DNA from: Patescibacteria group bacterium
GTDB taxonomy: Bacteria > Patescibacteriota > Patescibacteriia > XYB2-FULL-38-15
DNA: 64,000 bases
Direction of reading: 5' to 3'
Assembly (NCBI GenBank): GCA_041653675.1
Contig: JBAZEY010000001.1
Location: 98-64,097, forward strand
Position 1 is the first letter of the stretch, and every line of letters begins with the position of its first letter. Of the stretch, positions 1 to 15,234 are shown piece after piece. Under the pieces are notes generated by a model. The model was not told the DNA's origin. It searched no databases and worked only from the letters and a program-made list of their open reading frames with translations. Position numbers and translations under genes: made by a program.

Positions 1-3000
1 TTATTACGGCGCGGACGCGAAGAGATATGTTTTCCCATATCAGGCTTCTTATGCGTCATGGTATGGCTCCACCTTTGGTGCTGTCACCACTATGACCGAC
101 GCAGATTTAATTGCCATTCCTTTCGGCGGTAACGTGACTGTTCGCCCGGGCAAATTAGCCCAGGTCGTCAGCATGGACAGCCCTTGGATGGTAATGGATC
201 CTAAAGTTTACGCCGTAGAAAAAGACAATGTTCTCCGCTGGGTTAAAACCGCGGACGTCGCTGTCGCTATCTTTGGCGCGACTTGGGAATCACAGATTGT
301 CGCTATTCCAGAAGCGCTCCTCACCAATTACACGATTGGCGCGGAAATCAACGCTGCTGGAGACTACACTTTAGCCACTCAACAGGCCGTTGCCTCAATC
401 AATGAGTGCAAAGGTTTGACCGGCGTTTCCGGAACGGGCGGCTTATCAGTTGCTTTAGCTTCAGACACTCCGGCAGCCGCTTCAGTACCGAAAGGCGCGG
501 CTGACGTTTATTTTACCAAGGTTAACTTCACTGCTGGCGCGGCTGATGCAACAATCACCGGCCTTAAGGTGACACGATCTGGCCTTGGTATCGACGCGAA
601 CCTCGCTGCCATCAAACTTTTTGTTGACGGCGTACAGCGCGGCACTGCACAGAGTTTAGGTTCAATCCATCAGGCAACCTTTACTTTGTCTTCAAACCCG
701 ATCGTCGTCCCTGCCGGCACCACAAAAGCGGTTGTTTTAGCCGCTGATATTGCCGTCGCGACGGCGTTTGACCAACACGTCCTGGGCATTGCCCTCGCGT
801 CAGACATTACGACCACTGCGACCGTTTCCGGAACATTCCCGGTTAACGGCAGCACAATGTCTTTGGTCAACACTTCAATTGGCACTGCCGTGATTTCAGG
901 CGGTCCGTTAAACCCGGGCACCACGGGTGGCGATGTCGGAATTGATCCGGCTGCGGTCGGCTACAGATTCTCGCAGATTAGAATCGCCGCTGGTTCAGTT
1001 GAACCGCTCGTTGTTCAGCAGATCGTTGCCATCAGGAATGGCACGGCTGCTAGCACTGATGTCAAGAATATTGAACTCTTCAATGATACAGCTGGCACTT
1101 CTTTAGGTACTGTCACTGGTTTGGATTCAACCGGCCGAGCCGTGTTTTCAAACCTGAATTTGACAATAGCCAAAGGCGCCTATGTTGAATTATCAGTTAA
1201 AGCCGATATGGCTGGCGGTTCTGGCAGATCAATTAGCTTTGACGTTCATGACGGCACAGCGTTTGCCGGCATGATAAAGGGCGGAACCTTTAACTTTGGT
1301 ATTACTCCGACCTTTACCAATACGACTGCTTTCTGTAAAACCGCTGCTACCGACTACACTTGTCAAACACAGACCATCAATCAGGGCTACTTAACAGTTT
1401 CGAAGAGCGCTTCAGCTCCAGCCACTGGCAAAATCCCAACTGGCGGGACGAACGTTCCTTTGATGGCCTTTGATTTCACTGTGGCTGGTGAGCCGATCAA
1501 TGTCACTTCAACAGTGGTGACTTACACTACTGCTGATGGCACAGGCACTGCCGGTACTGGTATTAGAACAAATGTTACCAATTTCACATTGGTAACGGCT
1601 GCTGGTACCACTTTGGCTGGTCCAAAAGATGGCGATACCACTCACACAAGCGTGGGTGCGGAAACCTTGACCATCACTGATGGTTACACCTTGCCGGTTG
1701 GTACAACTGTGGTTTACGCGAAAGCGAACTTGTCTTCGTTGATGACTGCTGGCAACACCGTTGTTGTTACAATGGCAGCTGGCGCGATCACGGGCAAAGG
1801 CGCGAATTCCGCCAAAATTGTTCACACCACTTCAACTGGCGCAACCGTTCCTCCAGCATCTGCCATCACTGGCAACACGATGACTGTGCAGGGTCCGGTC
1901 TTAGCAATCACTACGGCTGCTTCCCCGGTTGTTGGCAGTATGGTGGTTAATGCTCAAGATCAGATTTTTGCTTATCTTGATCTTGATGCTTCAGGCGGCG
2001 GTGAAAACATTAGAGTCAGTTCCATTAAAGTGACTGACACTTGCGTTGCTGCGGCTGGTCCTGTGGCTTGTACTCTCTACACTGGTTTGAATAACCTTGA
2101 ACTCTGGGGCGATCCGGATAACACCGACGCCACAGTGGTCAACGAACGCTTAGCCACTTCCAACTCAACAGCGGTTCTCGGCGCTACTGTTACTTTCACC
2201 TTCCAAGTCCCGATCGTGGTTTCAAAAGCTGCGACATCGAGATTGACCTTGAAGGCTGATGTGACAACTGTTTATGATGAAGCATCAGAGGGAACTGCAG
2301 ACACTCATGCCTTTAAAGTTAATGCGGGTGGTGATGTCACAGCCATCGGCGCAGTCACCGGTAATACCGCCGCAAAGACGGTTTCTGGTGCTGGCCAGGC
2401 CCAAACACTCCGCGCGTCAGGAACTTTGAAGGTTGAAAAGGCGGCTGACATGCCGTCTGCCGTGCAGCTCGTTTCATCTTCCTTGGCCAATGAAGTGGCG
2501 AAGTACAAATTCACCACTCAATATGAGCCAGTTGATGTGACGACAATCAGTCTCTTCTGCGGTGACAACACCCAGGCTGGTACAAACTGCACCTTAGGCA
2601 ACATTGCGAAACTCTATGTCTACGCAAATGGCGTCTTGGTTGGTAACACTGCGGGTTACTCCTTGGATGCCACTGGCCTCGCTTCAGTTGTCTTGGATAG
2701 CGGAACTTTGGTCATTCCAAAGGACAGCTATTCAACGATCACCATTAAGGCTGATCTACCTGACAAGACTCAGGTGACGACTTCTTCAGGTGCTGATATC
2801 CAGATCGGTATTGAAGGAGCTGGCGCTGCTGGCACAACCCATAATGAAGATAACACCTGGGGCGATGGAGTTCATGTCAATAACGACTACTACATAATCG
2901 CGAATGGCCAATCTTCAGGCGCGATCATCGACATGAATACCATCAACAGTTTGGGCACTACGGCCGTTTCTCAGAACTTCGCTTCAAACCCCTTCAGTGC

Positions 3001-13353: not shown

Positions 13354-15234
13354 ATGAAAAGCTTTAGAGTTTTTCTTGTCGTCGCAATGGTTTTGACCGT
13401 AAGCGGGGTAAATATTCTGCCGCAAGCGGCAAATGCCTGGACGCCGACATTGACGTCAGTTGTCTTTTTGGATGCTGATCATAATGGCACGATTGACCGT
13501 CTTAAAGTGACTTTTGATTTAGAGGTTACGAGTTGTAAATTTGAAGCGGGCGATTGGGCCATAGGTCCCGGAAGTATTGGGCTGACCGCGCCGACAGGCA
13601 GGCTTAACAGTGTGGGCGGAGATTTTGATTGTAACGGCACGACAAATTATTTTTATCTTCTTGTTTCCGCCGACGCGAATGAAACCGGCTACCCGGCAAC
13701 TATGTATGTTCAGGCGGATATTGTATATAGAAATCAGGGGACCTTGGACAGCATAACGGTTTCGGGCGTAGGAGCTCCAACTCAGCCACTTAGAAATGTT
13801 GACGATAATGCTTCGCCGGTTATTATTTCCACCGTCCCGACGGCCGGAGCAACCGGGGTTAGCGCCACACTTTCGTACATTCGAGAGACTTTTTCCGAAC
13901 CAATGCAAACCAGCGCGACATCGCTTTCCATCAGTTCCGGGAGTTGGTTGGCTCCTTCTTGGAGTGACGGTGATAAAACGGTTACGCGGTCAAGATTAAC
14001 ATCTCCTGCTTATGATACGAACGTCACTGTTTCGACGAGCGGCGAAGATTTGGTTGGATATTTACTTTCTTCCGGCGCCTCTCCGGCGATAACAAATCCC
14101 TGGAGTTTTAGAACTGGTACGGATCCGGCTCTCGCGGCTTCGGCAAGCTTGTCAACAGTTTCCGCAACGCCCGCATCAGTAACAGCTGACGGATCTTCTG
14201 TTTCAGTAATTATTGTGACAGTGAAAAATTCTTCTGGCAGCGCGCTCTCTGGTAAAACCGTGACGGTATCGTCAAGTCGCGGCGCAACCGACGTAATTGC
14301 TGTTGTAAACGGAACAACAGACGCGTCCGGCAAAGCTTATTTTCAAGCCCACTCCATCACCCCGGGCAGCGCCACCTTCACTGCGGTGGCCGACGGGGTA
14401 ACAGTTGACCAAACGGCCAGCGTTGTCTTTACCAGCGTAACTTCCAGCTCTGTCTCTGCCTCAAGGTCAAGTGTTCTCGCGATTCCGTCTTCGGTAGTGG
14501 CTGACAGCAGTTCTTATTCAGTGGTTTATGTAACCGTCCGCGACGCAACGGATGCTCTTCTTTCCGGTAAAACCGTAACCTTGTCGTCCAATCGCGGTTC
14601 ATCCGACGCGATTACGATCGTTGATGGAACAACCAATTCTTCGGGCCAGGCAACTTTTCAAGTCAGATCGGGAGCAACCGGCACGGCGACGCTTACTGCC
14701 GTGGCAGACGGAGTAACAATTACTCAAACTACGACAGTTACTTTTACGGGCACTTCCGCCTTGATTTATGGCGATTTATTTAAAGAAGCTGGAAGCACGG
14801 CTGTTTACTATTACGCGGATAATGGTAAGAGATATGTTTTCCCGACTCAGGCGATTTATTTTTCTTGGTATACTGGTTTTTCTACCATTAAAACTGTGAG
14901 TCATGGCATCATAACGTCTGTTCCTTTCGGCGGAAACGTAATCGCCAAACCTGGCACATATTTGGTCCAGTTTGTCAGCATGGACACGCCTTTCCGCGTG
15001 CTTGATCCTAAAGTTTATGTTTTGACTGCGACCGGCCAATTGCGTTGGATTACATCAGCAAGTACCGCGACTTCACTCTACGGCGCTGATTGGGAAAAGA
15101 AAATTATCGCCGTGCCGGAAGTTTACAAAACAAATTACGGCAATGCGGTAGCCGGAGCGGACGTCAATGGAACAGCGGATTACAGTAAGGTTTCGGTTGA
15201 GGCGACCGCAAGGACGATCAGTGATTTGTACTAA
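13354..15234 (+). CDS. Surface protein paralog: signal peptide, DGAAP-type module, Big_5-like, two Big_1-like Ig domains, shared C-terminal domain
   Basis: Signal peptide MKSFRVFLVVAMVLTVSGVNILPQAANA. Two copies of the motif SATPASVTADGSS...SGKTVT.SS.RG..D...GTT..SG.A.FQ. C-terminal YYYADNGKRYVFP...SMDTPFRVLDPKVYV. Confidence 0.7.
   Translation: MKSFRVFLVVAMVLTVSGVNILPQAANAWTPTLTSVVFLDADHNGTIDRLKVTFDLEVTSCKFEAGDWAIGPGSIGLTAPTGRLNSVGGDFDCNGTTNYFYLLVSADANETGYPATMYVQADIVYRNQGTLDSITVSGVGAPTQPLRNVDDNASPVIISTVPTAGATGVSATLSYIRETFSEPMQTSATSLSISSGSWLAPSWSDGDKTVTRSRLTSPAYDTNVTVSTSGEDLVGYLLSSGASPAITNPWSFRTGTDPALAASASLSTVSATPASVTADGSSVSVIIVTVKNSSGSALSGKTVTVSSSRGATDVIAVVNGTTDASGKAYFQAHSITPGSATFTAVADGVTVDQTASVVFTSVTSSSVSASRSSVLAIPSSVVADSSSYSVVYVTVRDATDALLSGKTVTLSSNRGSSDAITIVDGTTNSSGQATFQVRSGATGTATLTAVADGVTITQTTTVTFTGTSALIYGDLFKEAGSTAVYYYADNGKRYVFPTQAIYFSWYTGFSTIKTVSHGIITSVPFGGNVIAKPGTYLVQFVSMDTPFRVLDPKVYVLTATGQLRWITSASTATSLYGADWEKKIIAVPEVYKTNYGNAVAGADVNGTADYSKVSVEATARTISDLY

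Follow-up and report, generated by a model that had tools for sequence, protein, structure and literature searches.

Background

Patescibacteria, the candidate phyla radiation (CPR), account for a major part of the diversity of bacteria. Almost nothing is known of how their cell envelopes work, and the annotation of most proteins that they export is 'hypothetical'. Among the wall-binding modules that act non-covalently are SLH on S-layer proteins and xylanases and SH3b on lysostaphin. A different kind of extracytoplasmic repeat is found in the mycobacterial protein EccB, a component of type VII secretion systems (T7SS). The extracytoplasmic part of EccB1 has four repeat domains, each consisting of a four-stranded sheet and two helices (PMC4769845), and repeats R1 and R4 of EccB mediate dimerisation, with the involvement of a conserved GIPGAP segment after R1 (PMC8131196). 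In this study, a module of tandem repeats shared by five neighbouring genes was analysed in a 64,000-nucleotide stretch of DNA from a Patescibacteria group bacterium (contig JBAZEY010000001.1, positions 98 to 64,097; hereafter the window). The five genes are referred to as g1 to g5; all lie on the plus strand within the first 15.2 kb (Table 1). In predicted models the repeat resembles those of EccB, and we favour a role of the module in holding exported proteins at the wall of the cell that makes them.

An earlier note, made from the letters of the window, had described the five genes as a paralogous family with a common signal anchor and a conserved domain of about 125 amino acids, for which a sorting, anchoring or secretion function was suggested.

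A module of tandem repeats in g1 to g5

The five plus-strand genes were borne out by the open reading frame (ORF) calls. The start of g3 was set at ATG 7244 and not at TTG 7190, because the former aligns with the start of g4 (MAEKIKK). Alignment of the five module copies gave 27 invariant columns, with 37–60% identity to the copy in g1. The aromatic and charged residues conserved in the module, numbered as in the g2 copy, are Y17, D22, R25, F28, W37, N60, Y86, R95, W111 and Y126. When a hidden Markov model (HMM) built from homologues was run against the six-frame translation of the whole window, exactly five copies were detected, one in each of g1 to g5 (E 1e-45 to 2e-64), and no copy was found outside these genes. 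The shared domain is therefore real.

Its extent and composition differ from the single domain of about 125 residues described before. The module is built from tandem repeats of about 60 amino acids, of which there are two (about 130 residues) in g1, g2 and g5 and three (about 195 residues) in g3 and g4. When the first half of the module was compared with the second by hhalign, the two matched in register (E 5e-3), and a P-G is invariant after repeat 1. Tails like the approximately 67 extra C-terminal residues of g3 and g4 form a family with 64 members in the homologue set; in no case is there overlap with the two-repeat core. Since this family aligned with the profiles of both repeat 1 (E 4.9e-8, probability 95%) and repeat 2 (E 1.6e-5), the modules of g3 and g4 were taken to have three repeats.

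Scans of the module against Pfam and NCBIfam gave no matching model even at E values up to 10, and a PHROGs scan gave no family. Models for SLH, LysM, SH3b, CW_binding_1/2, PG_binding, GW and SPOR were among the Pfam families without a match on the module. Searching the PDB with a sequence profile returned just chance matches to the antibody framework motif AVYYC. The statement that the domain could not be assigned to a known family thus holds for Pfam and NCBIfam, but at the level of fold the module can be related to the R-repeats of EccB.

Predicted fold and relation to EccB

An AlphaFold2 model of the two-repeat module of g2, built with an alignment of 37 homologues, had a mean pLDDT of 94.2 and a pTM of 0.86 and displayed two successive beta-beta-beta-alpha-beta-alpha units. 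In a Foldseek search of the PDB with this model, the ten best matches were all EccB1 or EccB5 (probability 0.75–0.93, E 6e-3 to 4e-2); the overall TM-score was low, approximately 0.31, since the repeats are oriented to each other in a different way. Repeat 1 modelled alone (pLDDT 90.9) retrieved EccB1, EccB3 or EccB5 at ranks 1 to 10 and 14, with TM-scores of 0.52–0.60 (best 0.57–0.60) and rmsd values of 3.1–5.5 Å over 56–67 columns, and all non-EccB folds remained at or below a TM-score of 0.41. The E values of this search (0.16–3.5) were not significant, as is expected for a query of 64 residues. DSSP strings of both models fit four strands and two helices per repeat, as in EccB.

The R1 to R4 repeats of EccB (PDB 3X3M, 4KK7, 5CYU and 7NP7) are the best and only consistent structural match of the module. 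They are similar to it in repeat size (about 55–60 residues) as well as in secondary structure, and both show the pattern hydrophobic-Y-hydrophobic..G.R..(V/F)P....a followed by a P-G segment. Both are also located outside the cytoplasmic membrane of a cell of single-membrane lineage (Terrabacteria). For comparison by profile, EccB sequences that had been checked against PDB chains were used. The module profile matched the EccB1 sequence on R4 (E 1.5e-3), with MYYIDPQGVRYGVPNAETAKSL opposite VYYYADNGRRYIFPTAAIYSSW, and when 16 EccB repeats were combined into a profile, that of repeat 1 aligned with it over 61 columns (E 3.2e-3); overall, the hhalign comparisons of the module and its repeats with EccB1 and the EccB repeats were marginal (E 1.5e-3 to 3.6e-3). 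The repeat 2 profile gave nothing significant against EccB.

As judged from the models, the repeat has the EccB R fold, and it is probably a distant relative of the EccB R-repeats. The module does not belong to the EccB family (T7SS_ESX1_EccB, PF05108), because it is without the core domain, the EccB architecture, a Pfam match and T7SS neighbours. EccB possesses an N-terminal transmembrane helix and a central beta-sheet core and is arranged in a quasi-twofold manner as R1-core-R2-R3-core-R4, whereas the module is a plain tandem of two or three repeats. Furthermore, EccB is one component of a machine, whereas the module is appended to many unrelated proteins with no T7SS genes nearby. No paper mentioning EccB together with Patescibacteria was found in the literature.

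Among the predicted viral structures in BFVD, the best matches of the module model were two small, uncharacterised actinophage proteins, one from Rhodococcus phage Weasels2 (A0A1I9SA71, E 2.8e-5, target-normalised TM-score 0.77) and the other from Streptomyces phage LukeCage (A0A345MGB2, E 1.9e-3, target-normalised TM-score 0.68), with 16–22% identity. Phage amidases and lysins matched only weakly, and no relative of the module at the sequence level was found in phage collections.

Distribution and position of the module

A profile search of 1.84 billion cluster representatives (50% identity) gave 4,567 matches at E ≤ 1e-3 and 1,607 at E ≤ 1e-30, indicating that the module is not restricted to this locus. 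Where homologues bear a name, it is that of the Patescibacteria group or Uhrbacteria and, in one case, Methylomirabilis; genome records with the module were titled Falkowbacteria, Uhrbacteria, Buchananbacteria and Parcubacteria. Copies from these differently named candidate phyla were 40–60% identical. The window itself is syntenic with, and 83–89% identical in nucleotide sequence to, contig JACRNW010000001.1 of Candidatus Falkowbacteria. Many GTDB species-representative records with the module bear the title 'uncultured Gammaproteobacteria bacterium isolate binchicken_...' (loci L005, L007, L010, L014, L024 and about 35 further loci), and single module-bearing bins are titled Binatia, Methylomirabilis or Acutalibacteraceae; one record of doubtful title covers a complete chromosome with a length of only 886 kb. 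The titles Gammaproteobacteria, Binatia, Methylomirabilis and Acutalibacteraceae are doubtful; they are probably wrong or placeholders, and the genomes probably belong to Patescibacteria.

The position of the domain had been called invariant, with g1, in which about 1050 residues follow it, as the exception. This describes the window correctly but not the family. In the 148 best cluster representatives, 111 copies were N-terminal, 42 C-terminal and 8 internal, 13 proteins had two copies, and the N-terminal copies were situated just behind a typical signal peptide. A similar distribution was observed at 79 genomic loci from other Patescibacteria (86 N-terminal, 23 C-terminal and 8 internal copies). 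The layout of g1 is therefore no exception but the commonest architecture among the best representatives.

These positions bear directly on the proposal that the module is a C-terminal sorting or secretion signal for a dedicated machinery, that is, a substitute for a sortase signal or a C-terminal domain resembling those of T7SS or type IX secretion (T9SS) substrates. Such a signal would account for the C-terminal module in four of the five window genes, and the fold does resemble a component of a secretion system; EccB, however, is a structural part of the T7SS machine and not a signal on its substrates. Family-wide, the module is mostly N-terminal, behind a signal peptide, and sometimes internal or duplicated, it is predicted to be a well-folded alpha/beta structure (pLDDT 94), and all proteins inspected have ordinary Sec-type N-termini. 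The check for co-occurring secretion machinery suggested in the earlier note revealed neither a T7SS component (EccC, EccD, MycP or WXG100) nor a sortase among the 40 ORFs of the window that were compared with Pfam, a set that includes all ORFs of 300 amino acids or more, and the S8 protease encoded next to g5 is not a mycosin (see below). No sortase-type (LPXTG-like) C-terminus was found in g1 to g5. The C-termini of g2 to g5 are polar (...ARVTD, ...LSRIY, ...IKRIY and ...ISDLY, respectively), and g1 ends in LPLSGGSLSF with nothing beyond. The positional data largely refute the reading as a sorting or secretion signal, which we regard as very improbable; anchoring, also named in the earlier note, fits the distribution best.

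Module genes tend to cluster: at least two copies were present in 29 of the 79 loci, and three copies in 8. A recurring set of three genes in other Patescibacteria encodes proteins of about 184, 470 and 265 amino acids, each with a signal peptide followed by the repeat module (loci L017, L027, L029, L036, L045 and L065, each at about 5800..9200), which suggests an operon of module-bearing proteins. Clustering of this kind, including the three-gene set, and the presence of two copies in some proteins would be in accordance with a function in docking or oligomerisation, by which module-bearing proteins join each other or a common envelope scaffold, for example in a surface layer assembled around a g1-type protein in the manner of dockerin and cohesin. 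Dimerisation is the sole experimentally established role of the EccB repeats (PMC8131196), and the invariant P-G of the module occupies a place comparable to that of GIPGAP in EccB. Oligomerisation alone, however, would leave proteins with cleavable signal peptides (g1, g2 and g5) unattached to the cell, no partner protein is evident, and the combination of M23 peptidase and module described below corresponds to the classic layout in which a wall hydrolase is joined to a wall-binding domain. A docking function is thus considered quite improbable.

Carrier proteins and the g1 family

Domains fused to the module were identified in two sets of homologues. In 120 short homologues, an M23 peptidase was present in 12, with the module C-terminal in these; Big_1 was found in 14 and the fibronectin-like Pur_ac_phosph_N in 11. 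Further partners were CAP/YkwD, G8 and SH3_3, the last being a separate partner domain in two homologues only. The partners in 76 mid-sized representatives included peptidase C25, GH10, GH114, glucose/sorbosone dehydrogenase (GSDH), beta-helix and a chagasin-type inhibitor.

Within Patescibacteria there is a conserved family of proteins with a length near 1200 amino acids, in which g1 is the Falkowbacteria representative. These proteins consist of a signal peptide, the repeat module and approximately seven tandem modules of about 150 residues, which in g1 span residues 145 to 1160 approximately (self-hhalign). An ortholog of 1234 amino acids from Falkowbacteria (locus L002, 5836..9540) has the signal peptide MNDLIKTGKQVFTFAVVLSTIAWSVGLGALALPLAANA, with the repeat module directly behind it and about 1050 residues after the module. 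The C-terminal 1050 residues of g1 are rich in Thr, Ala and Gly, have no Pfam match or PDB sequence match, and are homologous to 36 of the 148 representatives, mostly 1170–1250 residues long. The family ends in a conserved LPL(S/T)GGSLS(F/Y). Of its 21 invariant columns, 20 are inside the module, which accounts for about 12% of the length; the module is by far the most constrained part of these proteins. The g1-type protein is a candidate S-layer or major surface protein. One preprint reports S-layer proteins in Patescibacteria, without naming in its main text which proteins these are. In L002 (Falkowbacteria RIFOXYA2_FULL_38_12), two genes precede the g1 ortholog (3650..5577), and by eye their products look like a sigma factor of the extracytoplasmic function (ECF) type and a coiled-coil membrane protein of the anti-sigma type.

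Proposed binding to the cell wall

We infer that the module binds a ligand and that this ligand is the wall of the producing cell, a reading to which an even chance may be given. The carriers would be exported via Sec by their ordinary N-terminal signal peptides or anchors, after which the module would bind, non-covalently, a conserved component of the cell's own wall. Candidates for this component are peptidoglycan and a glycopolymer linked to the wall, in which rhamnose may be present. Binding would keep otherwise soluble exoproteins at the surface, among them the proteins with Ig-like modules, the g1-type protein of about 1200 amino acids, M23 hydrolases, CAP proteins, proteases and glycosidases, and the module would thereby act in the role that SLH, CWB2, LysM, GW or SH3b has in other single-membrane bacteria.

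This reading is favoured because the module is used in the same way as the non-covalent wall-binding modules of single-membrane bacteria: it works at either end of a protein, is extremely conserved relative to its carriers, is fused to wall hydrolases as well as to many further exoenzymes and surface proteins, and is N-terminal on a conserved giant repeat protein. SLH is likewise a tandem-repeat module at the N-terminus of a large conserved surface protein or at either end of an exoenzyme, and comparable usage in the present family extends to a GH10 xylanase, proteases and wall hydrolases, all Sec-exported. The M23 peptidases with a C-terminal module would mirror lysostaphin, in which an M23 catalytic domain is joined to an SH3b binding module. 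The concentration of constraint in the module fits a conserved ligand beneath a fast-evolving exposed part. Since the window contains genes for MurA, MraY, FtsW, MurG, MurD and a further Mur ligase, a wall to be bound exists. The rml genes and the glycosyltransferases of the window, the absence of LPXTG-type C-termini from g1 to g5 and the clustering of module genes in other Patescibacteria are likewise counted in favour of this reading. The module differs from SLH, CWB2, LysM, GW and SH3b in that sequence and fold are unrelated, and in that its binding to the wall is a proposal.

A possible parallel was considered in PlyCB of the streptococcal phage lysin PlyC (PDB 4F87), which is reported to bind a rhamnose-based wall polysaccharide (bioRxiv 10.1101/2021.03.19.436156). 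The likeness lies in a rhamnose-based ligand on one side and the rml-type genes of the window on the other; it is second-hand and serves as a lead only.

Several points weigh against wall binding by an EccB-like repeat. The E values of the profile comparisons with EccB are marginal, and the resemblance in fold could be due to convergence. PlyCB was not among the Foldseek matches of either model, so that a PlyCB-like fold was rejected. No phage lysin carrying the module, which would be direct support, was found by sequence in IMG/VR (searched with two peptide patterns) or in GenBank phages (tblastn). Finally, the module of g3 and g4 is located at the far C-terminal end of an N-terminally membrane-anchored Ig-like stalk, and this layout fits a distal ligand-binding tip as well as a second anchor.

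The distal module of g3 and g4 is what would be expected if the repeats bound the wall of the host bacterium that these ultra-small episymbionts live on, and targeted lytic enzymes (M23 and glycosidases) and adhesins there instead of anchoring them on the producer. The fusions with M23, GH10, GH114 and peptidase C25 could then be offensive enzymes, the several paralogues per locus resemble adhesin repertoires, and the closest viral structural matches are the small Rhodococcus and Streptomyces phage proteins, with phage amidases and lysins weaker. Modules recognising diverse hosts normally diversify, however, and here the module is the most conserved part, as indicated by the identity across named phyla and the invariant columns of the g1 family given above. 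Moreover, in most proteins the module immediately follows the signal peptide, and it is the variable part that points outward. Binding to a host is therefore rated as unlikely, although of some weight.

Retention at the producer's own wall thus remains the favoured reading. A wider form of it, in which the module is the general wall anchor of Patescibacteria, a counterpart of SLH or sortase anchoring, and shares ancestry with the EccB repeats, is put forward tentatively and is rather doubtful.

Architecture of the five genes

Outside the module, the earlier note listed invasin-type Ig domains, SbsA-type Ig domains, an ITWS...DGSYTWTVP module and repeats starting with D(G/K)AAP, all of which are present (Table 1). 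Above the Pfam gathering scores, Big_1 was detected in g2, g3 and g5 (43.5–86.2 bits), Invasin_D3 in g3 and g5, and the SbsA-type Big_5 in g3 and g4 (43–46 bits); these Ig-like matches are situated in the carrier parts, outside the shared module. An ITWS...DGSY(T/S)WTVP module is present in g3 and g4, and that of g4 gave a weak Kre9_KNH match under the Pfam cut-off. Starts of the D(G/K)AAP type number three in g3, four in g4 and one variant in g5. The repeats are about 120 amino acids long (approximately 7790..8530 in g3, 10827..11860 in g4 and 13471..13800 in g5), no Pfam family covers them, and they contain motifs of the DxDxDG type, such as DGDTDGMVD, DDDADGAIN, DIDADGTVE and DADHNGTID, which suggest calcium binding from their sequence.

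The description as a paralogous family with a shared signal anchor is true in part. The genes are mosaics, and g1 has only the repeat module in common with g2 to g5; partial relationships exist between g3 and g5 (33% identity over 611 residues) and between g3 and g4, which have homologous N-terminal hydrophobic anchors and 68% identity over the C-terminal 219 residues. The anchor is shared by g3 and g4 alone. The signal peptides of g2 and g5 are unrelated and of the ordinary type, and the g1 N-terminus falls beyond the window edge. A type IV pilin-like signal was considered for the g3 and g4 N-terminus (KKGFFKV...); by eye, the conserved Glu at +5 is absent, and the N-terminus was therefore treated as a plain hydrophobic anchor.

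Table 1. Features of the window, with positions counted from its first nucleotide
Feature	Position	Strand	Description
g1	2..3625	+	5'-truncated, 1207 codons left, about 55 codons missing
g1 module	2..352	+	repeat 1 2..142 (cut by window edge), repeat 2 143..352; HMM E 1e-45
Y1 transposase gene	3777..4310		IS200-type; between g1 and g2
TPR protein gene	4460..5128		membrane-anchored; between g1 and g2
g2	5145..6833	+	562 aa: signal peptide, unassigned N-terminal region, Big_1 Ig-like domain, C-terminal repeat module
g2 module	6360..6752	+	residues 406–536; repeat 1 6360..6542, repeat 2 6543..6752; copy used for modelling
g3	7244..10102	+	952 aa: N-terminal hydrophobic anchor, two DxAAP modules, Big_5, ITWS...DGSYTWTVP module, Big_1/Invasin_D3, three-repeat module
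g3 module	9518..10099	+	residues 759–952; repeats 9518..9700, 9701..9892, 9893..10099; HMM E 2e-64
g4	10281..13181	+	966 aa: g3-type N-terminal anchor, three DxAAP/DxDxDG modules, Big_5, ITWS...DGSYSWTVP module, three-repeat module
g4 module	12597..13178	+	repeats 12597..12779, 12780..12971, 12972..13178; HMM match
g5	13354..15234	+	626 aa: signal peptide, one DxDxDG module, Big_5-like segment, two Big_1/Invasin_D3 domains, C-terminal repeat module
g5 module	14764..15168	+	repeat 1 14764..14946, repeat 2 14947..15168; HMM match
S8 subtilase	15455..17674	+	secreted, with FG-GAP repeats; Pfam Peptidase_S8 8.8e-50 and FG-GAP; downstream of g5
Glycan synthesis block	17700..28241		NAD epimerase/dehydratase, GT2, DUF2304, GT2, two GT4, small kinase-like, PMT_2
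rml-type genes	30056, 33341, 34187 (region 30056..35257)		dTDP-glucose dehydratase-like, RmlD-like, nucleotidyl transferase
PEGA-domain protein	35272..36501	-	
Cell-wall and division block	36494..58835		MurA-type, S41 protease, MraY, FtsW, MurG, MurD, second Mur ligase

Genomic surroundings

The whole window is a cell-envelope region. The Y1 transposase and TPR genes between g1 and g2 occupy the same position in the related contig from Falkowbacteria (L004). In 20 of the 79 related loci, which come from diverse genomes, a homologue of the secreted S8 subtilase downstream of g5 is encoded no more than about 6 kb away from a module gene; a functional link between protease and module may exist. 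The best NCBIfam match of the subtilase is the T7SS mycosin (150 bits against a cut-off of 278.75), and this match together with the EccB-like repeats gave rise to the idea of a T7SS remnant. It was discarded, since all of the 60 PDB sequences closest to the protease are generic subtilases, none of them a mycosin, and the window has no other T7SS part.

The glycan synthesis block might glycosylate Thr/Ser-rich surface proteins or build a wall polymer. The PMT_2 protein in it is a membrane protein similar to ArnT and protein mannosyltransferases, and two of its ORFs (23725..24411, plus strand, and 24471..26603, minus strand, 710 amino acids) are large and without any family. FtsX was counted in the cell-wall and division block, and the ORF at 55294..57258 (654 amino acids) has no family. 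Because Mur, MraY, FtsW and rml genes are present in the window, synthesis of peptidoglycan can be concluded for the organism, and that of a polymer containing rhamnose is probable. A stretch with elevated G+C content (31795..33232; 0.51 for 32001..34000) has overlapping ORFs on both strands, of which 31874..32446 and 32726..33211, both on the plus strand, look most protein-like. The one ORF of this stretch scanned against Pfam (31795..32685) gave no family, and there was no Rfam match.

Significance

The fold of the repeat and the kind of domain, a modular surface-retention domain, are known already. For the family itself, its restriction to this lineage, its breadth and its EccB relationship, no previous description seems to exist. 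The module provides a conserved sequence handle with which the surface proteomes of Patescibacteria can be listed, as it tags thousands of exported proteins, and it points to candidate S-layer or adhesin genes. A fusion of the module with GFP could be used to label or capture Patescibacteria cells. The likeness in fold to EccB also supplies a hypothesis about the extracytoplasmic repeats of type VII secretion systems, so far unexplained; if the ancestry is shared, the extracytoplasmic part of EccB would have been assembled from an older wall-associated repeat. If the module is a general wall anchor, it would mark the surface proteome, and the seven-repeat protein of about 1200 amino acids could be the subunit of an S-layer. 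Should the module bind proteins and not the wall, it would still represent a lineage-wide principle of cell surface assembly.

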